A DNA stretch of 38,954 bases from Escherichia phage P762. The notes beneath the pieces are model-generated. The model worked only from the letters and a program-made list of their open reading frames with translations. It was not told the origin of the DNA and searched no databases. The stretch lies in the sequence record MW876471. One strand, given 5' to 3'. This document shows, piece by piece, positions 3,019-34,588 of this stretch; within the stretch, counting starts at the first letter, position 1; every line of letters begins with the position of its first letter. The position numbers and the translations under genes are program-made.

Positions 3019-3041
3019 AGTCCCTATAGTGATAGTTAAGG
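3019..3041 (-). promoter_or_regulatory. phage RNAP promoter (phi13 position)
   Basis: minus-strand CTTAACTATCACTATAGGGA (plus strand tccctatagtgatagttaag), one of 11 copies of the same motif. Confidence 0.75.
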
Positions 3042-6246: not shown

Positions 6247-6290
6247 CAAAAAAAACCCCTCAAGCACCCGAAGGCACCCAAGGGGTTTCA
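6247..6290 (-). terminator. T-phi-like rho-independent terminator after the capsid gene
   Basis: minus-strand AACCCCTTGGGTGCCTTCGGGTGCTTGAGGGGTTTTTTTT: GC hairpin with TTCG loop and U-run, same place and near-same sequence as T7 T-phi. Confidence 0.85.
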
Positions 6291-7568: not shown

Positions 7569-7591
7569 TCTCCCTATAGTGATAGTTTAGT
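7569..7591 (-). promoter_or_regulatory. phage RNAP promoter (phi10 position)
   Basis: plus-strand ctccctatagtgatagtttag; upstream of capsid gene with ~100-nt leader ending in AGGAGA SD. Confidence 0.8.
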
Positions 7592-8565: not shown

Positions 8566-8588
8566 TGTTCCTATAGTGATAGTTTAGG
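8566..8588 (-). promoter_or_regulatory. phage RNAP promoter (phi9 position)
   Basis: plus-strand ttcctatagtgatagtttag between portal stop and scaffold gene. Confidence 0.75.
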
Positions 8589-10813: not shown

Positions 10814-11038
10814 TTACCCCATGTTGACGCCAGAGGCTCGCATAGCGCGACTCACTGACGATTTATCTTTAGGTGTAGACTCCTTCTTGACCTTCAGGTC
10901 TTTGATACCTTTGGTCTCGTTGGTGTCCACATCCGATTCAGCCCCGATGTCAACTGACGCAACTTCCTCACTCAGAGGTGCTGGTTCAGGTGCTTGGACC
11001 GAAGGCTTCGGAGTGCTAATCTTTGGACTGAAACACAT
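10814..11038 (-). CDS. gp6.7: gp6.7 small virion protein
   Basis: 74-aa ORF beginning MCFSPKI..PEPAPL as T7 gp6.7. Confidence 0.8.
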   Translation of the reverse strand: MCFSPKISTPKPSVQAPEPAPLSEEVASVDIGAESDVDTNETKGIKDLKVKKESTPKDKSSVSRAMRASGVNMG

Positions 11039-11386: not shown

Positions 11387-11409
11387 AGTCCCTATAGTGA
11401 TAGTTTAGT
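11387..11409 (-). promoter_or_regulatory. phage RNAP promoter (phi6.5 position)
   Basis: plus-strand gtccctatagtgatagtttag. Confidence 0.8.
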
Positions 11410-17454: not shown

Positions 17455-17477
17455 CATCCCTAAGGTGATAGTTTAGG
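17455..17477 (-). promoter_or_regulatory. variant phage-promoter-like sequence
   Basis: plus-strand atccctaaggtgatagtttag: consensus with two changes in the TATA element (ctaaggtg vs ctatagtg); flanked by a GGGAC...GTCCC inverted repeat. Confidence 0.4.
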
Positions 17478-19819: not shown

Positions 19820-19842
19820 CTGTCCTACAGTGATAGTTTAGG
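19820..19842 (-). promoter_or_regulatory. phage RNAP promoter (phi2.5 position)
   Basis: plus-strand tgtcctacagtgatagtttag (one change, ctacag for ctatag). Confidence 0.65.
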
Positions 19843-20691: not shown

Positions 20692-20714
20692 TTGTCCTAT
20701 AGTGATAGCTTAGG
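20692..20714 (-). promoter_or_regulatory. phage RNAP promoter (phi1.5/1.6 position)
   Basis: plus-strand ttgtcctatagtgatagcttag. Confidence 0.75.
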
Positions 20715-20795: not shown

Positions 20796-21836
20796 TTAAC
20801 TCTTAACGGTTGGATTGTCTTCCGTCCCGCGCCAGCACTTGAAGCTAGGGTGACGAAGGGAACCATCAGGGAAGCGCTCCATGAATAGGACCTCACACTG
20901 CCATCCTTCATAGGCGTGGTTGTCACCGTTTAGCTCCTGAGTCTTAACAGCTAGTGTGAACTCGTCCTTCTGTTCTTCAGTCAGACCGCAGGCGTTAACC
21001 ACCATGCCATCCTCAAGCAGAACCTCGAAGCCGATGACCTTACCTTCGTTAGCCTTACCCGGAGCCCCCCACACGAGGCCACACACTGTCCCGTCGATGG
21101 TCTCCTCAGGCTTCATCTTCCACATGCCTGACTTCTTGCCACGCTTGTATTTACCAAGTGGGTCCTTGACTACCAGACCCTCATGTCCTTCCAGACGCTT
21201 CTGTTCGTACAGGGAGTTGAGCGACTCAAGGTCATAGACCGTGTGTGACTCAGACAGAACCCAGTCGATTTCCGGGAAGTATTTCTGGAGGAGGGGGACG
21301 ATAGCTTCTGCCTTCAGGCGTGTGACGCTATGGATAGGACCTTCGGCTTTCGGGTCTGCTATGGTTGTCATGTCGATGACACCGTAAACCACAACCTGAA
21401 GTCGTGACCGGGCGACCCAGAACTGGACCTTCTTGCCACGGCCCGGATAGCATTCAGCGAACTCCTCGTTGTTAGGCTTCAGCCACTTCGTTCGGATGAG
21501 ACCTGAGGAGGTGTTGAAGTCTACACCTTTGACCATGACCTCGCCATCAATCATTAGGCCGATACCTTCATAGCCAGCTTGACGAAGGAACCACCGCCAG
21601 TCAGCCTGAGTCCACGCATTGCCCAACTCAGAGTTCATCCACTCAAGTGCTGGCAGTGGTTTAGACTCACGGCTTAACCAATAAGTCTCACCCTCTCGCA
21701 GCACCGGAAGGTTCAACCGCACACCGTCATACTTCACTTCAGCTTCCAGCGACCCGGCTGCTGCCAGTGCTTTCGTAACGCCAGACTCAGAGTAATCTAC
21801 AGCGCGGTGCGGGTTGGTCTTGAGAGTAGTAGTCAT
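20796..21836 (-). CDS. gp1.3: ATP-dependent DNA ligase gp1.3
   Basis: 346 aa; catalytic-lysine motif KYDGVR, MVKGVDFNTSSGLIRTKW, QKRLEGHEGLVVKDP, YKRGKKSGMWKMKPE, NEGKVIGFEVLLE, PDGSLRHPSF, RGTEDNP blocks match T7 ligase. Confidence 0.97.
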   Translation of the reverse strand: MTTTLKTNPHRAVDYSESGVTKALAAAGSLEAEVKYDGVRLNLPVLREGETYWLSRESKPLPALEWMNSELGNAWTQADWRWFLRQAGYEGIGLMIDGEVMVKGVDFNTSSGLIRTKWLKPNNEEFAECYPGRGKKVQFWVARSRLQVVVYGVIDMTTIADPKAEGPIHSVTRLKAEAIVPLLQKYFPEIDWVLSESHTVYDLESLNSLYEQKRLEGHEGLVVKDPLGKYKRGKKSGMWKMKPEETIDGTVCGLVWGAPGKANEGKVIGFEVLLEDGMVVNACGLTEEQKDEFTLAVKTQELNGDNHAYEGWQCEVLFMERFPDGSLRHPSFKCWRGTEDNPTVKS

Positions 21837-22345: not shown

Positions 22346-22364
22346 CCTATAGTGATAGTTTAGG
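22342..22364 (-). promoter_or_regulatory. phage RNAP promoter (phi1.1 position)
   Basis: plus-strand aatcctatagtgatagtttag. Confidence 0.75.
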
Positions 22365-23132: not shown

Positions 23133-25814
23133 TTAAGCGAATGCAAAGTCTGAAGACAAGATGTCTTCGATATTCAGTTTACCTTTCTTCGGAAGCTCAG
23201 GCAACTTGTCGCGCTGGCTTTCATGAAGCTGGTATTCAAACTGCTCGTAGAAGTCAAGCAGCACATCGTTGTCGCGGTAGGTCTCGACCATTGTCTCACG
23301 GACGCCACGGAACAGATACTCAGCGTCAGCCGGGATGGTCCCGAAGCTATCGTGAATCACTGCGAATGACATCACACCATACTTGTGGTGCGTGTGGACT
23401 ACAGTCTTGCGGAGGTGGCTACCATCTTGTGAGTGGACGAAGTTCGGGCTAATGCCTGACTCCTGCTTGTGCTTGTCCAGCTCTTTCTTCGTGCCTTTGT
23501 TGACTGTAGGCTGAAGGTTGAATGACCCTAAGAACATCAGGTTCAGACGAGTGGTATCCTTCTTGCGGTACTCCTGCCAGACAGGGAAACCATCAGGTGT
23601 GACCCAGTGTACCGGAAGGCAAGGCTTCAGGATTTCTCCAGTCTTCTTGTCTTTCACTTCAGCAGCCAGCAGCTTGGCAGCACCTTGAAGCCACTTCATC
23701 GCGTCAACCGCAGCAACTACGGTCACACTCACAGCTTCCCAAATCATCTTAGCCATGAAGCGGGACGCTTGGCTTGGTTCAGTGAACATAGCGCCAGACC
23801 CTGAGTCAATCGCTGGCATAACGATATCCTCGTAAACTTGGTCTGCGAATCCATACTCTTTCGACCCGTAGGCTAGAGTCATGACCGAACGCTTAGTGAC
23901 CTTGCGTGACATACCGTATGTCAGCCACTGACGGGCCAGCTCTCGTGTTCCCAGCTTGAGACGCTCGGTAATCTCACCAGTCTTCTTGTCCTCGTGAGTC
24001 ACCATCTCGTTGTCCGTACCGTTAACCAGCAGGACTTTAAGCTCCTCCTCAATGCGGTCAGACACAATGCGGTAGATGTCTTGGACCTTACCGGATGGCG
24101 TCAGGTTTACTGCATGTCCACCGATGTGGTCACGAAGCATCGCGCTGAAGTGCTGAATACCAGAGCAGGACCCATCGAACGCTATCGGTAGCGAGCAGGA
24201 GTAAGACAGGCCGTGGTGCATTACGCCAGCATACTCGAAGCAGAACGCGAGGAAACAGAACGGAGAGTCTAACTTGCCCCACCACTCAATACTATCCATC
24301 GGTGCCTTAGCAGTAGCCATAATGTTGTCGTGGTTGTCTTCCACCCACTTGATGCGCTCCTCGAAGGTGACTTTATCGACACCCGCACAGTTTGCACCAT
24401 GGACCTTCAGCCATTTGAAACCATCAGCGCCAATAGGCTTGCCGACTGCCAGAGTCAGGAGACCCTTCTGCATGTCGTTACCTTGAGGGTTAAACATCGG
24501 GACAGCGTAGACACGACCTCGCCAATCCATGTTGTATGGGAACCAGATAGCCTTGAACTGAGAGAACTTGTTCGCTTGGTTAACGATAAAGCTCAGTGAC
24601 AATCTTCGTGACTGTCTGGCCTTCTCGCGGCGATAGATACCAGCAGCAGCTTTCTTCCATGCCTTGAGTTCTTCTTCAGTCTCACCCGCATAATCCTCAG
24701 GCTTCAGTGGTTCCATCTGAGGGATGTCATCAATAGGCGTGTTGTTCAGCTTCTCGACCATGTTCACCACGTCCAGCACCTTCTTGTTCACTTTCCAAGG
24801 CGTATTCTGGATGATGTTAACAGCGTCATAGACTTCAGGCATGTACACGTCTTCGTAACGTGCTACCGCAGACTTAGACCCTAAGCGAATCAGTGGTAAT
24901 GGTCTGCGACCTTTGGCCCAGTACCCACCGCCTACGACACCCGTCCACGGCTTAGGTGGAACGACGCAAGGCTGATAGACCGGTGCAATACCCGCAAGAC
25001 TGAATCCACGTTGTGCCATCTTCTTGACCCAGAAGTCTGACAGGTGGACCATCTCAACGTCAGCCGCTGCATTACCAGCACCGTAACGCTTAAGCTCGAC
25101 CAGTTGTGTAGACTGGATGACAATCTCAAGCATCTTGATGCCAACGTGTACCGCTTCTGTCGGACTCCAAGTTCCCCACGCATCTTCCAGTTGTCCTTGC
25201 TCAAGCATGGATGTCTCAACAGCTTGCATGTAGGCTTTCTTGTAGGATACCCCTGCTCGCTTGTTCAGGTTCTCAGCTATCGCCTTCTTGAAGTGCTCCT
25301 GCTCCTTGTCACGGATGCGACCGAAGCGTATTTCATCCTCAAGTGTGCGACCTATCGCTGAGGCCATAGGTGTAATCGGTATCCCTTCAGGCTTGACCAG
25401 CTTGGATAGGATGACCTTTAGTATGATGACCGCAGCAGACTCGCAAGAGATACGCAGAGAGCGGTCCTTGACGGCCTTCTCTTCAGTGCTCAACATGGTG
25501 AACGCTACGCTTGGACGAGAGGTTGACATCTTCCCGTCTGGACCTTCGTGCCACTCCTTGACGGCTTGCGCAATCTTAGGGACCAGAGTCTGCATCAAAG
25601 GCTTGGCTACCTGATTGTCTGCCAGTTCCCCGCGCTCGGTCTGTCGCTCAAGGTTCTTGATGAAACGTCGCTCGCCTTCAGTGTATGCCTCGTGCTCAAG
25701 CTGAAGCTGTTTGACTGCAAGGTCTTGCCCGTAGTGGTCAGCCAGCAGGTTAAACGGCTCAATGGCGTTCGACACATCAGAGAAGTCGTGTTTGTCAATA
25801 GAGATGACGCTCAT
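23133..25814 (-). CDS. gp1: single-subunit DNA-directed RNA polymerase gp1
   Basis: 893 aa; collinear with T7 RNAP over the whole length (VPPKPWTG, WFPYNMDWRGRVYA, AFCFEYAGV, DGSCSGIQHFSAMLRD, TLAYGSKE, HDSFGT, C-terminal FAFA). Confidence 0.98.
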   Translation of the reverse strand: MSVISIDKHDFSDVSNAIEPFNLLADHYGQDLAVKQLQLEHEAYTEGERRFIKNLERQTERGELADNQVAKPLMQTLVPKIAQAVKEWHEGPDGKMSTSRPSVAFTMLSTEEKAVKDRSLRISCESAAVIILKVILSKLVKPEGIPITPMASAIGRTLEDEIRFGRIRDKEQEHFKKAIAENLNKRAGVSYKKAYMQAVETSMLEQGQLEDAWGTWSPTEAVHVGIKMLEIVIQSTQLVELKRYGAGNAAADVEMVHLSDFWVKKMAQRGFSLAGIAPVYQPCVVPPKPWTGVVGGGYWAKGRRPLPLIRLGSKSAVARYEDVYMPEVYDAVNIIQNTPWKVNKKVLDVVNMVEKLNNTPIDDIPQMEPLKPEDYAGETEEELKAWKKAAAGIYRREKARQSRRLSLSFIVNQANKFSQFKAIWFPYNMDWRGRVYAVPMFNPQGNDMQKGLLTLAVGKPIGADGFKWLKVHGANCAGVDKVTFEERIKWVEDNHDNIMATAKAPMDSIEWWGKLDSPFCFLAFCFEYAGVMHHGLSYSCSLPIAFDGSCSGIQHFSAMLRDHIGGHAVNLTPSGKVQDIYRIVSDRIEEELKVLLVNGTDNEMVTHEDKKTGEITERLKLGTRELARQWLTYGMSRKVTKRSVMTLAYGSKEYGFADQVYEDIVMPAIDSGSGAMFTEPSQASRFMAKMIWEAVSVTVVAAVDAMKWLQGAAKLLAAEVKDKKTGEILKPCLPVHWVTPDGFPVWQEYRKKDTTRLNLMFLGSFNLQPTVNKGTKKELDKHKQESGISPNFVHSQDGSHLRKTVVHTHHKYGVMSFAVIHDSFGTIPADAEYLFRGVRETMVETYRDNDVLLDFYEQFEYQLHESQRDKLPELPKKGKLNIEDILSSDFAFA

Positions 25815-25883: not shown

Positions 25884-25906
25884 TAGTCCTATAGTGATAG
25901 TTAAGT
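25884..25906 (-). promoter_or_regulatory. phage RNAP promoter directly upstream of the RNAP gene
   Basis: plus-strand agtcctatagtgatagttaag about 75 nt upstream of the gene 1 ATG. Confidence 0.6.
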
Positions 25907-26941: not shown

Positions 26942-27273
26942 CACTCGCAGTCCTCTTCAGGCTCGAACCATACCACATCACGGCTATCAGACACATCGTT
27001 ATACAGTGCCTCGTAAATGCGAGCTTGCAGTATGCGCGTTACGTCCTTGGTATCAGGCATCAGCCCAGAGTCTTCGAACTCAATGTCTATACCATCAGCA
27101 GCCATCACCGTGAAAATCTCGTGGTAATAGTGCGGAACCTGACCGTCTACGACCTCATGCAGCGCATCGTGATAATCATCGCCTTCAGTTATTTCGTCGT
27201 ACTGAATGCGATCGTTAAATGCTTCAACAGTTGCAGCCAGCAGCTCATAGTATGCGTTAGCGTTACGTTCCAT
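26941..27273 (-). CDS. ocr: Ocr-like DNA-mimic anti-restriction protein (gene 0.3)
   Basis: acidic 110-aa protein; [41 protein letters not shown] almost identical to T7 Ocr. Confidence 0.93.
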
Positions 27274-27485
27274 AGTTATATCCTCTCAGTTGTTAGTGAC
27301 TATCAGTCAGGGCCTTCAGTCGCTCAAGTCAAGCCCGTCTCGCGGTAGACTCAAAGACCCTGTAGTTAGTCGCTATCGGCGCACATTAAGAGTTTATCCA
27401 GATTGTTAAAGAGCATTCGCGTTGGCTGTCGTCGCCGTGCTATCCCGTTTCAGTGTTGGGACTCACCGTTGTTTCAATGTGGTAC

Positions 27486-27515
27486 AGCTTACATCTTATC
27501 TTTACCGCTTGTCAA
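27486..27515 (-). promoter_or_regulatory. host sigma70-type early promoter (T7 A3-like)
   Basis: minus-strand TTGACA-18 nt-TAAGCT followed by GTACCACAT, as in T7 A2/A3. Confidence 0.6.
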
Positions 27516-27627
27516 CTACTTTCCGTCATCTGCCTGTTTTTCGTATGACTTATCAGGCTGTCTACTTGACCGGGATGACCCGGCGTCTTCACTATCCGGT
27601 GGGTGCCGTGTCGTGTTGACGGAAGCT

Positions 27628-27656
27628 ATTAAGCCATAGTCGAGACTTATAGTCAA
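27628..27656 (-). promoter_or_regulatory. host sigma70-type early promoter (T7 A1-like)
   Basis: minus-strand TTGACTATAAGTCTCGACTATGG-CTTAAT, close to T7 A1. Confidence 0.6.
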
Positions 27657-27808
27657 TAGGTGATTTGAAATTAATATTGATTAAACTATCGTCGGCCCCA
27701 TAGTGACTAAGAGGATATAGTCTTTGACTAACATGTCTTAGACCTTAAGTCTATAGCGTTGTGTCTATTAGCTGTATGTCTCTGACTGTAGGTGTTGGTG
27801 TCTTATGG

Positions 27809-27840
27809 CTGAGACTGTAGGTTGCTGAGACTGTAGGTTG
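27809..27840. repeat. 16-bp tandem direct repeat (ctgagactgtaggttg x2) within an array of short iterated motifs
   Basis: exact tandem duplication; nearby recurrent gactgtaggt, cctatgg and cctatcgt motifs, analogous to the short repeats next to the T7 terminal repeat. Confidence 0.7.
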
Positions 27841-27869
27841 TAGGACCTATGGCTGTTGAGACCTATGGT

Positions 27870-28058
27870 TATACAGATAGAGACTCAGAGACAGACCAAT
27901 AGTCCCAACCTATCGTCCCGACCTCCAGCCATAGCCTCAACCTATCGTTGACCTGAAGTCTTGACCATTGGTCCAACCTTATGATAAACTGGGGTAGGGC
28001 CTTTGGTCTGGACTGAAAGAGGGCCTATGGGGAGACTTGAGGTTCTTGAACTGTGAGA
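27870..28058 (-). repeat. predicted direct terminal repeat of the linear genome, single collapsed copy; left genome end near 28058
   Basis: minus strand from ~28058 reads TCTCACAGTTCAAGAACCTCAAGTCTCCCCATAGGCCC, homologous to the first bases of the T7 terminal repeat; boundaries inferred only. Confidence 0.45.
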
Positions 28059-28304
28059 TGTGGTCTCAAACTTTTGGTCCAAAACTCATCGTCCCTCCTT
28101 AGGAGCCAGCTACTGTAGGTCAAGGACCGTAGGTCTAAGACCATCGGATGACGACCAGTGAACCAATCAGTAGGTAGACCAGAAGTGAGAGCCTGAATGG
28201 TGTTACCTAAAGTCCTTGACTACAGTAGCTAAGGTCAGTAGAGTGAGTCTTTATCCACGTACTGACCTTAGGTCTTCCGCTCATGAATCGTTACCATGAT
28301 TGCG

Positions 28305-28463
28305 TTAATTACACTGAGACACCAGAGAACATACGAGAGTCTCGACCCACCCGACCCACTGACTTCCAGCAGTAACGCCAGCAGCAAGTAGAACAGCAGC
28401 AAGAAACCTGTATGTAGATCGATTGGTCGCCAGAGCTTTAAGTACAGCTTTGGTCTTTGCCAT
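28305..28463 (-). CDS. gp19.5-position small membrane protein (52 aa)
   Basis: AGGAGG SD; MAKTKAVLKALATNRSTYRFLAAVLLAAGVTAGSQWVGWV..., last gene before the genome end. Confidence 0.5.
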   Translation of the reverse strand: MAKTKAVLKALATNRSTYRFLAAVLLAAGVTAGSQWVGWVETLVCSLVSQCN

Positions 28464-28643
28464 ATGCTACATACCTCCTGTATCTATGGTCGGTGACTAT
28501 CTGTATTGGAGGGATTATGATTAATATCACCATCCTTCCATCGGTGCAAGCCTTAGGTAAGAACTCGGAGTCTGCCTCCTAAGGTCTTGCATAAAGTCTG
28601 CATATGTATATTCACTACAGTAATACTATAAGTAACCGGGGGT

Positions 28644-28666
28644 CTTCCCTATAGTGATAGTTAAGT
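28644..28666 (-). promoter_or_regulatory. phage RNAP promoter (phiOR position, after the terminase gene)
   Basis: plus-strand ttccctatagtgatagttaag. Confidence 0.75.
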
Positions 28667-32381: not shown

Positions 32382-34520
32382 TTAATCATTCTCAGTATTA
32401 TACATCAATACAACCGGACCTGTATACGTTGCCGTAGATGCCAGGTTAGTCATGTTGTAAGGCCGCATTCTAACCTGATTGGTACTAATGAGGCGGGCCT
32501 TAAGTAGCCATGTATCATCATTTGTGTTTGCTGATGTCTCTTGAATAATTACAGAGGTTGCAGGTTGAAAATGGTCTGGTATGTTTCTGGTTACCACTCT
32601 AGCTGTGTCTGTACTTGTTAGAGTAAAGAACTCCCGCCCTGATGTAGATATTGCTGTACAGTTCTCTGTATAGTTATTCCTAATATCTGGCCTACTTGTG
32701 CGACCCTCCGCTAAAGTCTTCATCTTAATAACACTAGTATTCATAGCAGTTCCTGTCGTGTTACGGAACCTGCACTCAGTAACCTTCACCTGATATGGGT
32801 TAGATATCAGATTAATAGCCACCCCATGCGGAGGCACTAACCAGTTACAAGCATTAATCGTAAAGCGTGCACCATCACCATTTGATTCAATAAGACATCC
32901 ATCAAAATAACAATTAGAAAACTGGTCAGCATTAGACATGATAACAACACGACCCTTAGTACTATCCGTATCCTGATCTGGATAGAAGTGACAGTTACTA
33001 AATGCGTTAGCACCTTTACGCAAAATCATAACGTCTTTGTACTGGGAACCGATGATAATATCGGAGAAGTTATTATCATAGCAGTCAATGTCTAAACCTA
33101 CACCCTCTGTAACATGGGAAGGGAACGGGTAACGCCAGTCTGGTTGCTGGAATATATGAGTTTTACCCATATTCAACTCATGAGGTGTAGACCCATTTGG
33201 TTGCATTTTTACCCCATGCTGCAAATACCTAGTTAACAATCCACCCCATACGGTTACTTTTAAGAAATCACCGGTAATACGAATAGAACTTGCTGCCTTC
33301 CAGTTAGCATCAATATTTGGGTTAAAAACAACAATATTTTCAATTGGTCGTATACCATTAACCTTACGAAAATCCAGTACAGCGTCCGTATTAGGGAAAG
33401 AACCAATAGCGATGAGTGAAGGGTTCATCACAGCAAAGTTAAGGCAGTCATCAATAGTAAATGAGCGAGATACATAGTAGGCACCTTGGCTCATATCAAA
33501 AACAGCACCCCCAAGGTTAAACATGTTTGGGTCTTCTCGGCCTGTAGGATATGCGGTCTTACGGTTTCTTGCAATTACACTATCTCTCCAAAGAGCTAAT
33601 GCATCCGAACTGTCGAAGGTAGCTACATTGGGTTTGGCTCCATAGTTCCTTGGATCGTCAACAGAATATGCTGATAGATAGCCAACGCACACCCAATCAT
33701 CATCTGGCGATGAGTTCGGTGGTACAGTTATCGTTCCAGATATTGGAGAGTAATACATGTTATCCAGTGGGTTCAAAAGTGCAGATTCATTAGCTGTCGC
33801 TGAACCTCCAGTTAAAAACGTAACACCAGATATTTTTTTATATTCAAGTGCCATAAAATATGACTCAGCCCACTGCCTTGCAGAGGCATCACCAACGCTA
33901 ACCCACGCACCTAATCCAATCCCGCCGGAAGTTTCAGGAGTTGAACCAGCAGGAACGTTCTTTGGAAGCGTACCATCCCAGCGGTAATAAGCACCATCCT
34001 CTTCCCATAGCAGCACCTCGTTCCATGTTATAACGTTGAAGCCTTTCTCGAAGGAGCGGCGGGTAATATAGCTAATTCGACCAGATGCCTTGATACTCTC
34101 AGCGATTCGTCGTGCTTCATCCTCGCTATCCTTAGCGTTGCCAGCAGAGTTACCAGCAGCATCGGCATATTCCTTCGCTAAGTCAACAGTTTGGTCTCGA
34201 CCTTCTTCTGAAATATGGATAGCCTGAAGCTCTGCATTGGTCAGGTCACTAGCTGTCAACACTGATCCATTCCTGAAGTCTACCACTAAGTCAGTTCCAG
34301 TCTGACGGTGAATACGAACGATGTCAAAACCTGATTGGTCAACCAACATCTCAATCATCGTTGGATTAAGGAATCTGTAATCTCTACCAACTTCCAGTAC
34401 ACGGTTCAGGGTAGGGTTAGAGCTATTCACCAGCGTAACAACAACAAACGTTCTTGCTAGGTAGTCGAACTCAATCCTGTACTGAGTGTTTCCTGAAGGG
34501 AATTGTGTAATCGTGGACAT
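32382..34520 (-). CDS. gp17: tail fibre/tailspike gp17: T7-type N-terminal adaptor plus unrelated beta-helix-like, probably enzymatic, C-terminal domain
   Basis: N-terminal ~150 aa ([31 protein letters not shown]) match T7 gp17; the remaining ~560 aa are unrelated to T7 fibre, AT-richer, with [16 protein letters not shown]-type repeats. Confidence 0.9.
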
Positions 34521-34565: not shown

Positions 34566-34588
34566 GTTTCCTATAGTGATAGTTTAGT
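34566..34588 (-). promoter_or_regulatory. phage RNAP promoter (phi17 position)
   Basis: plus-strand tttcctatagtgatagtttag. Confidence 0.8.

Follow-up and report, generated by a model that had tools for sequence, protein, structure and literature searches.

The P762 genome and its RNA polymerase gene

We analyzed a 38,954-nt stretch of DNA from Escherichia phage P762 (sequence record MW876471; the window), which represents the entire genome, in circularly permuted form, of a Kayfunavirus, a K1F-like coliphage of the T7 family. Its placement in this genus (Autographiviridae, Studiervirinae) follows from nucleotide similarity to, and synteny with, K1F-like phages across the genome: many Kayfunavirus records match the first 25 kb of the window with 93-98% query coverage and ~92-95% identity, and the closest deposited genomes, at ~94-95% nucleotide identity, all belong to Kayfunavirus. 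The RNA polymerase (RNAP) gene reaches at most 95.6% nucleotide identity to deposited records. Gene 1 and its specificity-determining segments are located as follows.

23133..25814, minus strand: gene 1, T7-like single-subunit DNA-dependent RNA polymerase, 893 aa (open reading frame, Pfam, homology)
25506..25538, minus strand: AT-rich-recognition-loop equivalent, residues 93-103, DGKMSTSRPSV (T7 93-101, KAKRGKRPT) (MAFFT and HMMER alignments)
23475..23570, minus strand: specificity loop (beta-hairpin), residues 749-780, equivalent to T7 739-770 (alignments to T7)
23511..23549, minus strand: codons for RLNLMFLGSFNLQ, residues 756-768, Arg-756 to Gln-768 of P762 being T7 Arg-746 to Gln-758 (translation, codon map)
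23517..23519, minus strand: codon AAC, Asn-766, at the T7 Arg-756 position (alignment, codon map)

The gene product contains the Pfam domains PF00940 (RNA_pol; 1.2e-106, 357.7 bits against a cut-off of 22) and PF14700 (RPOL_N; 6.4e-14, 52.5 bits against a cut-off of 30.1), and it aligns end to end with T7 RNAP chains from the PDB (HMMER; 1277 bits, 64% identity). This full-length homology above the curated Pfam thresholds places it among the T7-like single-subunit RNAPs. In the catalytic and specificity-loop part of the enzyme, P762 numbering equals T7 numbering plus 10. The catalytic T7 residues Asp-537, Lys-631, Tyr-639, and Asp-812 correspond to Asp-547, Lys-641, Tyr-649, and Asp-822 in P762, all in invariant columns of a five-RNAP alignment. 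The AT-rich-loop equivalent has diverged from T7 and is followed by an 11-residue insertion in both the MAFFT and HMMER alignments; by analogy with T7, it may serve the same function in the P762 enzyme.

The specificity loop is identical to that of K1F RNAP

A sequence-only reading of the window had assigned 23511-23549 to the RNAP specificity loop, and the reverse complement of this segment indeed translates to RLNLMFLGSFNLQ within the open reading frame 23133..25814(-). In three independent alignments (HMMER against PDB T7 RNAP, MAFFT, and tblastn), Arg-756, Asn-758, and Gln-768 of P762 lie opposite T7 Arg-746, Asn-748, and Gln-758, whereas Ser-764 is found opposite Gln-754 and Asn-766 opposite Arg-756. 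None of them places an arginine at the Arg-756-equivalent position. The claimed conservation of the first three residues and the claimed Arg to Asn substitution are thus borne out, as is the description of Arg-756 as a base-contacting residue: T7 RNAP makes the contacts Arg-756 to G-9, Gln-758 to A-8, Arg-746 to G-7, and Asn-748 to the non-template strand (NT) at -11 (PMC8874028). At T7 positions 746/748/754/756/758/761, the P762 and K1F polymerases both have R-N-S-N-Q-V, as compared with R-N-Q-R-Q-I in T7. The P762 loop, TTRLNLMFLGSFNLQPTV, is the same as in K1F and carries the Asn-748, Ser-754, Asn-756, Gln-758, and Val-761 (T7 numbering) of K1F-type loops; residues 730-790, including the entire specificity loop, are 100% identical to K1F RNAP. 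Ser-754, Asn-756, and Val-761 also match the residues listed for a published graft (754S, 756N, 761V).

Eleven cognate promoters lie on the coding strand

When up to 3 mismatches are allowed, the 19-mer TAAACTATCACTATAGGGA occurs 11 times in the window, each time on the minus strand, as compared with 0 expected from 100 shuffles. This count agrees with the number of phage promoters proposed earlier. The 11 sites deviate from the 18-mer CTAAACTATCACTATAGG by 0-2 mismatches, and no other site in the window comes closer than 4. Each of the 11 promoters lies between genes or at the end of a gene and is oriented with the coding strand. They are listed here (-17 to +6) together with a hairpin.

34566..34588, minus strand: promoter, +1 at 34571, 51 nt upstream of gene 17 (phi17-like); syntenic with K1F 32603
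28644..28666, minus strand: promoter, +1 at 28649, downstream of the terminase large subunit (phiOR-like); syntenic with K1F 38858
25884..25906, minus strand: promoter, +1 at 25889, 75 nt upstream of the RNAP start codon
22342..22364, minus strand: promoter, +1 at 22347, after the gene 1.05 homologue
20692..20714, minus strand: promoter, +1 at 20697, G at -12, after the ligase-sized open reading frame 20796..21836
19820..19842, minus strand: promoter, +1 at 19825, 45 nt upstream of a 232-aa open reading frame (gene 2.5 position)
17455..17477, minus strand: promoter, +1 at 17460, CACCTTAGG variant (also in K1F, at 10872), upstream of a 566-aa open reading frame (primase/helicase position)
11387..11409, minus strand: promoter, +1 at 11392 (phi6.5-like)
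8566..8588, minus strand: promoter, +1 at 8571, 28 nt upstream of the gene 9 position
7569..7591, minus strand: promoter, +1 at 7574, GGGAGA start, 108 nt upstream of the major capsid gene position (phi10-like)
3019..3041, minus strand: promoter, +1 at 3024, 45 nt upstream of the gene 13 position
6252..6289, minus strand: putative Tphi-like intrinsic terminator hairpin, 17-bp stem and T-run, between the capsid gene and gene 11 (hairpin, position)

The 11 sites have CT[A/T]A[A/G]CTATCACnnTAGG in common, with a full consensus of [A/C]CT[A/T]A[A/G]CTATCACTATAGG[G/A] and a cognate consensus sequence of ACTAAACTATCACTATAGGGA. The 19-mer consensus proposed in the sequence-only reading captures the shared motif but is matched exactly at only 2 of the 11 sites. 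Its GGGA does not hold as a consensus because +3 is divided between G (5 sites) and A (6 sites), and it lacks C-16 and T-15, which are invariant in the P762 promoters. Positions -12 to -8 read ACTAT in 10 of the 11 promoters and GCTAT in the remaining one, followed by the core CACTATAGG, which makes them K1F-type promoters; K1F and 18 further loci show this pattern as well. Annotated promoters have CGACT (T7), ACCCT (T3), GGaCa (K11), and gGtGA (SP6) in this block. The proposed difference from T7 at -8 to -12 stands for -12 to -9 only, since -8 is a T in both phages. A promoter scan found no T7-, T3-, K11-, or SP6-type promoters in the window.

A phage promoter upstream of the RNAP gene is retained at a distance of 75-81 nt in 20 of 20 K1F-type loci, an arrangement that would place synthesis of the polymerase under its own direct positive feedback. 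This promoter is annotated as a predicted promoter in CR44b, and a narrow full-text search returned no paper that treats it as a regulatory feature. The hairpin at 6252..6289 agrees in position with Tphi of T7, T3, and K11 and probably acts as a terminator. A sigma-70 scan of the early region gave nothing on the coding strand at the scan threshold. By eye, A1/A2-like TTGACT/TTGACA motifs are seen near 27655 and 27515 on the minus strand, just below the -10 rule of the scan.

Loop and promoter types co-segregate

We next consider natural covariation between the specificity loop and the promoter. In 80+ loci, each type of loop is found with its own type of promoter without exception. A scan based on the core CACT[AG][AT]AG[GA] missed several of the Arg-756 loop groups, for which a k-mer count gave ...CGACTCACTA[TA]TGG-type sites. 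K1F-type loops occur with [A/G]CTAT promoters in 20 of 20 sampled loci, with -16, -15, and -13 essentially invariant over their 125 sites, and every sampled Arg-756 loop is paired with a C at -9. These counts uphold the earlier proposal of a co-varying polymerase/promoter pair. KP32-like loops combine Asn-756 with T-10/A-9 (GGTAG). Likewise, in a direct coupling analysis published in 2025, the promoter positions corresponding to -10/-9 are linked to residue 756, specificity is attributed mainly to 748/756/758, and the specificity network includes a 'K1F' node.

It could be argued that R756N alone switches specificity by changing the base read at -9 from C to A, in the manner of N748D for T3. 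The contact of T7 Arg-756 with G-9, the presence of C at -9 with Arg-756 loops and of A at -9 with the Asn-756 loops of the K1F type and, in T-10/A-9, of the KP32-like type, and the dominant role assigned to 748/756/758 would all be consistent with such a switch. However, K11-type RNAPs contain Asn-756 and yet have a C at -9 (GG[A/G]C[A/C]), and Asn-756 alone therefore does not dictate an A at this position. Moreover, the promoters depart from T7 at four positions (-12 to -9) rather than one, the -17 to -13 bases and the AT-rich loop differ as well, the published graft contained three substitutions (Q754S, R756N, and I761V), and a split-polymerase K1F variant (K1FR sigma fragment) regained activity only with an additional M750R mutation (Segall-Shapiro 2014, PMC4299498). 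We thus consider a single-residue switch unlikely.

The P762 polymerase could also differ in specificity from K1F RNAP, defining a new sub-specificity within Kayfunavirus by way of its 10 amino acid differences, one of which (Met-96 in P762, Leu-96 in K1F) maps to the AT-rich-loop equivalent. This idea is very improbable and we reject it: the specificity loops are identical, the -17 to +2 consensus is the same in both phages, the near-invariance of -16, -15, and -13 extends over the 20 K1F-type loci, and Ro45lw RNAP has a serine at position 96 and yet uses the same promoter. That the 11 repeats, recognized in P762 by their sequence only, represent another conserved intergenic element (e.g. processing or packaging signals) next to a neutrally drifting loop is effectively refuted, and we reject it as having a negligible probability, by in vitro transcription from the same sequence by purified Ro45lw RNAP with +1 mapped to a G, by its activity with K1F RNAP in vivo, by the -7 to +2 core CACTATAGG of the T7 group, by the placement of the sites immediately ahead of genes, with the orientation of the coding strand and in synteny with the phi promoters of T7, T3, and K11, and by the co-segregation described above.

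A model for promoter recognition

The gene 1 polymerase would transcribe the middle and late genes from the 11 cognate promoters, initiating at the first G. As in T7, the specificity-loop beta-hairpin would insert into the major groove and read about -11 to -7, with Arg-756 and Gln-768 of P762 (T7 Arg-746 and Gln-758) recognizing the conserved base pairs at -7 and -8. Q754S, R756N, and I761V, the K1F-type substitutions, would re-target -12 to -9 from CGAC to ACTA, the replacement of Arg by Asn at 756 accompanying the loss of the template-strand G at -9. The diverged AT-rich recognition loop is probably behind the K1F-specific C-16/T-15. A PDB search for a K1F-type RNAP-promoter structure returned T7 RNAP and mitochondrial RNAP chains only, and we therefore infer the atomic contacts of Asn-766. 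Asn-756 (T7 numbering) is associated with T-10/A-9 in two separate lineages, the K1F type (ACTAT) and the KP32-like type (GGTAG), which suggests that an Asn-adenine contact shifts the register of the hairpin. Asn-748 is retained although the T7 contact bases at -11/-10 have changed from G,A to C,T, which a simple T7 contact map does not explain. It is a tentative and rather doubtful notion that the K1F-type loop reads its promoter differently from the T7 contact map and that Kayfunaviruses are unique in having a feedback promoter upstream of gene 1.

These findings together indicate that P762 contains a real and distinct RNAP/promoter specificity pair, which is ordinary and already known. We put the probability that gene 1 and its 11 cognate promoters are the K1F RNAP/P_K1F system described previously, and not a new one, at about 0.93. 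The pair probably has its own, orthogonal specificity, as the sequence-only reading had suggested; experiments published on the K1F-loop graft, native K1F RNAP, and Ro45lw RNAP have already shown this for what is essentially the P762 polymerase. The novelty it implied is absent, with the K1F loop being identical and the pair already published. By analogy with the K1F, Ro45lw, and T7(K1F) graft literature, the P762 pair would be functionally separate from T7, T3, K11, and SP6, and P762 RNAP is predicted to transcribe from its cognate promoters and to discriminate against T7 and T3 types. As a discovery, the pair carries little weight: K1F RNAP and its promoter have been mined, grafted, and used in synthetic biology since 2012, the K1F-type pair has been purified in a close relative, and the covariation of 756 with -10/-9 was published in 2025. 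Its main use is as a clean positive control, a real specificity module having been correctly recovered from raw sequence. Modest value remains in the structural basis of ACTAT reading with an unchanged Asn-748, and in the genus-specific promoter immediately upstream of gene 1.

Comparison with known RNAP/promoter systems

We compared the P762 pair with other characterized systems. K1F RNAP (NC_007456) is identical to P762 RNAP in 883 of 893 residues (98.9%; ~95% nucleotide identity for the gene), with the 10 substitutions scattered and none in the specificity loop. K1F has 11 promoters at sites syntenic with those of P762 and an equal -17 to +2 consensus. The two records are circularly permuted relative to each other, and gene 17 encodes 712 aa with Tail_spike_N in P762 and 1064 aa in K1F. 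Native K1F RNAP and P_K1F are in established use for orthogonal expression, and also as a mutator system, with an on-target response of 46,470-fold as compared with 6- to 27-fold on non-cognate promoters and little cross-talk with the MmP1 and VP4 systems (PMC12218169).

In the T7(K1F) loop graft, the substitutions are exactly those found in P762 (listed as 754S/756N/761V for ACTAT in PMC11880802 Table 2), again with ACTAT at -12 to -8. The graft is active (17-fold induction) and orthogonal (Temme 2012, PMC3458549), with activity below wild-type T7, and the K1F loop/promoter block is thus a transferable specificity module. Orthogonality within the grafted polymerase set is limited, with a minimum cognate/non-cognate ratio of 8 (PMC11880802). 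The graft is a chimera with a T7 scaffold and the T7 -17 to -13 promoter bases, whereas P762 has its own AT-rich-loop region and C-16/T-15.

Ro45lw RNAP, from another Kayfunavirus species, has been purified, and its minimal promoter ACTTAACTATCACTATAGGGA was mapped in vitro with +1 = G (Takatsuki 2025, PMC12272871). The enzyme is 94% identical to P762 RNAP; its loop differs only by Met to Leu at T7 position 750, and 50 residues differ elsewhere, among them the serine at position 96. The mapped sequence equals the P762 promoter at 28649 exactly (-17 to +4), and the 3024 promoter differs from it only at -17.

T7 RNAP (PDB 1CEZ, 1QLN) shares its fold family and domain order (RNA_pol, RPOL_N) with P762 RNAP, the -8 to +2 promoter core TCACTATAGG is identical, and the layout of phi promoters and Tphi is common to both phages. 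The P762 loop departs from T7 by Q754S, R756N, I761V, and changes at 740-744, and its promoters by ACTA instead of CGAC at -12 to -9 and [A/C]CT[A/T] instead of TAAT at -17 to -14. P762 has a phage promoter 75 nt upstream of gene 1, whereas T7 has phiOL at the left end of its genome. K11 RNAP (59% identity) resembles the P762 enzyme in having an Asn at the T7-756 position but, unlike it, contains Lys at 748 and 758 and pairs with GG[A/G]C[A/C] promoters with a C at -9.

The polymerase and its specificity loop

Window genes run in minus-strand orientation. The polymerase features are:

23133..25814, minus strand: RNAP open reading frame (gene 1), encoding 893 aa
23511-23549, minus strand: segment flagged in the sequence-only reading; encodes RLNLMFLGSFNLQ (residues 756-768) on its reverse complement
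23517-23519, minus strand: codon for Asn-766, at the T7 R756 position

The RNAP matches Pfam RNA_pol and RPOL_N and aligns end to end with PDB T7 RNA polymerase chains in HMMER. It is a T7-family enzyme with intact catalytic residues and the specificity loop of phage K1F. Numbering is offset by 10 from T7 in the loop part of the protein, with R746, N748, Q754, R756, Q758 and I761 corresponding to R756, N758, S764, N766, Q768 and V771, respectively. HMMER, MAFFT and tblastn all place these residues identically, and none of the three alignments puts an Arg at the T7 756 position. The sequence-only reading, which had proposed an Asn there with R746, N748 and Q758 conserved, is thus borne out.

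A cleanly delimited set of K1F-type promoters

With up to 3 mismatches allowed, the 19-mer that this reading had proposed for 11 shared promoters occurs 11 times in the window, on the minus strand in every case, and never in 100 shuffles. The number of sites stands, but the exact full 19-mer occurs in only 2 of them, with position +3 being G in five and A in six. Compared with the 18-mer CTAAACTATCACTATAGG (-16 to +2), these sites differ at 0-2 positions; the closest other sequence in the whole window has 4 mismatches, so the promoter set is cleanly delimited. Their +1 positions (minus strand) are 34571, 28649, 25889, 22347, 20697, 19825, 17460, 11392, 8571, 7574 and 3024. All 11 lie between genes or at the end of one, immediately ahead of a gene, and are syntenic with the φ promoters of T7, T3 and K11. 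No T7-, T3-, K11- or SP6-type promoter was found in the window (best matches, 4-6 mismatches). A degenerate promoter-like second copy, CCTAAGATATGACTATAAGATAG, lies in the 11363 region (minus strand), 29 nt downstream of the φ6.5-like 11392 promoter and with 4 mismatches to the 18-mer; the 3024 promoter carries a partial core duplicate, GACTATAGG, at +4.

We compared loops and promoters with those of four reference phages, taking the promoters of T7, T3 and K11 from annotation and those of SP6 from a core search.

Promoter consensus and loop residues (T7 positions 746/748/754/756/758/761)
Phage; -12 to -8; loop
T7; CGACT; R N Q R Q I
T3; ACCCT; R D Q R Q I
K11; GGaCa; R K Q N K Y
SP6; gGtGA; R R D K S V
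K1F and window; ACTAT; R N S N Q V

The window consensus is distinct from all four, as had been claimed. The difference from T7, said to span -12 to -8, covers -12 to -9 only, T-8 being present in T7 too. Asn at 756 is shared with K11.

Natural covariation of loop and promoter

We scanned IMG/VR with an RNAP alignment, which gave 80 loci, and grouped these with reference genomes by loop sequence; a k-mer search was used for loop groups missed by the core promoter pattern.

Loop types (T7 positions 746/748/756/758) and their promoters (-12 to -8)
K1F-type (all 20 loci, L086 included); R N N Q, with S754; [A/G]CTAT
T7-type; R N R Q; CGACT
T3-type; R D R Q; ACCCT
Vibrio-N4-like; R D R A; ACCCA
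K11-type; R K N K; GG[A/G]C[A/C]
KP32-like; R K N F; GGTAG
Other R756 groups (k-mer search); R at 756; CGACT, AGACT, GAACT and similar

The K1F-type loop occurs with [A/G]CTAT in 20/20 loci, which supports the proposed interpretation of a co-varying polymerase/promoter pair. Every Arg-756 loop sampled has C at -9. Two lineages, K1F-type and KP32-like, combine Asn-756 with T-10/A-9, but K11-type loops combine it with C-9. The covariation is thus genuine yet context-dependent, and there is no one-residue/one-base code.

In T7 RNAP, R756 contacts G-9, Q758 A-8, R746 G-7 and N748 the non-template strand at -11 (PMC8874028; PMC11880802). Because both residues and bases are conserved, Arg-756 and Gln-768 of the window enzyme likely read -7 and -8 as T7 does. 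Asn-766 would contact the T:A and A:T pairs at -10/-9 in place of the Arg-guanine contact, and Ser-764 and Val-771 may tune the hairpin. The equivalent of N748 is unchanged though -11/-10 moved from G,A to C,T, which the simple T7 contact map does not account for. No K1F-type RNAP-promoter structure was among the hits of a PDB search, all of them chains of T7 or mitochondrial RNAP.

C-16 and T-15, absent from the sequence-only description, are invariant across the window promoters, whereas T7 promoters have A-16 and A-15. Among 125 K1F-type sites, three positions outside the search pattern are almost without exception constant (C-16, 124/125; T-15, 125/125; A-13, 125/125). The AT-rich recognition loop of T7 RNAP (residues 93-101, KAKRGKRPT) reads the promoter region around -16/-15. 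Its equivalent in the window (25506-25538, minus strand) is the strongly diverged DGKMSTSRPS, two residues longer than in T7 and directly followed by an 11-residue insertion (~33 nt). By analogy with T7, this loop would read C-16/T-15, and together they probably form a second co-varying module, which the earlier reading had missed.

A phage promoter directly upstream of gene 1

The elements considered here are:

25884-25906, minus strand: phage-type promoter, +1 at 25889, 75 nt upstream of the RNAP start codon
6252-6289, minus strand: strong Tφ-like terminator hairpin, 17-bp stem GAAACCCCTTGGGTGCC...GGGGTTTT plus T-run, between the capsid gene and gene 11

A phage promoter lies 75-81 nt upstream of gene 1 in 20/20 K1F-type loci (L001, 2480; L086, about 2400; L006-L024). 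None is found at this distance in T7-, T3-, K11- or KP32-type loci, which instead have φOL ~2.5-3 kb upstream, before the early genes. This position would place gene 1 of Kayfunavirus under direct positive autoregulation. In the CR44b record the site is already labelled 'predicted promoter', and a limited full-text search found no paper discussing it.

A sigma-70 scan of the early region (27200-28660, minus strand) gave no coding-strand host promoter at the scan threshold. By eye, T7 A1/A2-like elements with weak -10 hexamers fall just under it: TTGACT...17 nt...CTTAAT near 27655 and TTGACA...TAAGCT near 27515. From these, host RNA polymerase may make the first gene-1 mRNA. The hairpin at 6289..6252 is the putative Tφ terminator, and Tφ has the same position in T7, T3 and K11.

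Many short repeats of the CCTACAGTCTCAG / CCATAGGTC type lie at ~27760-27900. Two IMG/VR relatives carry repeats at the contig left end, namely at least 7 tandem copies of the 21-bp unit AGACTTCTAGATAACCTCTAG (L018, 99-250) and CTGTGGATAACT-type repeats (L030, 40-170); these are probably terminal-repeat or concatemer-junction elements unrelated to the polymerase/promoter pair.

Relation to K1F and published systems

The window is a Kayfunavirus genome. Its RNAP gene is ~95% identical at the nucleotide level to those of dozens of deposited K1F-like phages. The first 25 kb align with many Kayfunavirus records over 93-98% of their length at ~92-95% identity. Since the nearest deposited genomes (ST31, TM1, yong1, ZH4) show only ~94-95% identity, it may represent a distinct species by the 95% rule. 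Along the minus strand, genes 16 and 17 are followed by the lysis and packaging genes, a φOR-like promoter, the ocr-containing early region, gene 1 and onward. The map is a circular permutation of that of K1F (NC_007456), and the 38,954-bp sequence, which starts inside the internal-virion-protein genes, looks like a complete genome. The 712-aa product of gene 17 (32382-34520, minus strand) combines a T7 tail-fibre N-terminal adaptor with a Tail_spike_N (TSP1/Gp66) domain, unlike the 1064-aa K1F product. A swap of the receptor-binding module is probable, and with it a different host capsule or O-antigen specificity.

The transcription system closely resembles that of K1F: 883/893 RNAP residues are identical, residues 730-790 (the whole specificity loop included) are 100% identical, and K1F has 11 counterpart promoters of nearly identical sequence at syntenic positions. 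Temme et al. (2012) sorted phage RNAPs by loop sequence, each loop subfamily having an identical promoter binding region. They replaced T7 Q744-I761 with the K1F loop and T7 -12 to -7 with the K1F bases; the transplanted T7(K1F)/P_K1F pair took on K1F specificity and was active (17-fold induction) and orthogonal (PMC3458549). Zhu et al. (2025) list this T7(K1F) variant as 754S, 756N and 761V with promoter ACTAT, exactly the window's substitutions and bases. In the split polymerase that Segall-Shapiro et al. (2014) built with the K1F loop, M750R was required to restore activity (PMC4299498). The specificity network of Zhu et al. has a named K1F cluster, and their direct-coupling analysis links residue 756 with positions 8 and 9 of the promoter alignment (PMC11880802), which are -10 and -9 by our mapping (positions 6-10 being -12 to -8). 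Native K1F RNAP and P_K1F are in established use for broad-host expression and as a mutator system; the on-target effect was 46,470-fold, against 6- to 27-fold for the non-cognate promoters of MmP1/VP4 (PMC12218169). With the purified native polymerase of Kayfunavirus Ro45lw, Takatsuki et al. (2025) located +1 at a G and delimited the minimal promoter ACTTAACTATCACTATAGGGA (PMC12272871). The Ro45lw enzyme shares 94% identity with that of the window, its only loop difference being M to L at T7 position 750, and ACTTAACTATCACTATAGGGA equals the window 28649 promoter exactly over -17 to +4 and the 3024 promoter except at -17. The window RNAP would likewise start at the G of ...TATAGG, as these close native enzymes do (PMC12272871). 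Recent Kayfunavirus genome papers give this same repeat, CTWAACTATCACTATAGG, as promoter (PMC13298934). The window pair is thus the already well-known K1F polymerase/promoter pair, and what is new is the isolate, from a genus that has been heavily sampled.
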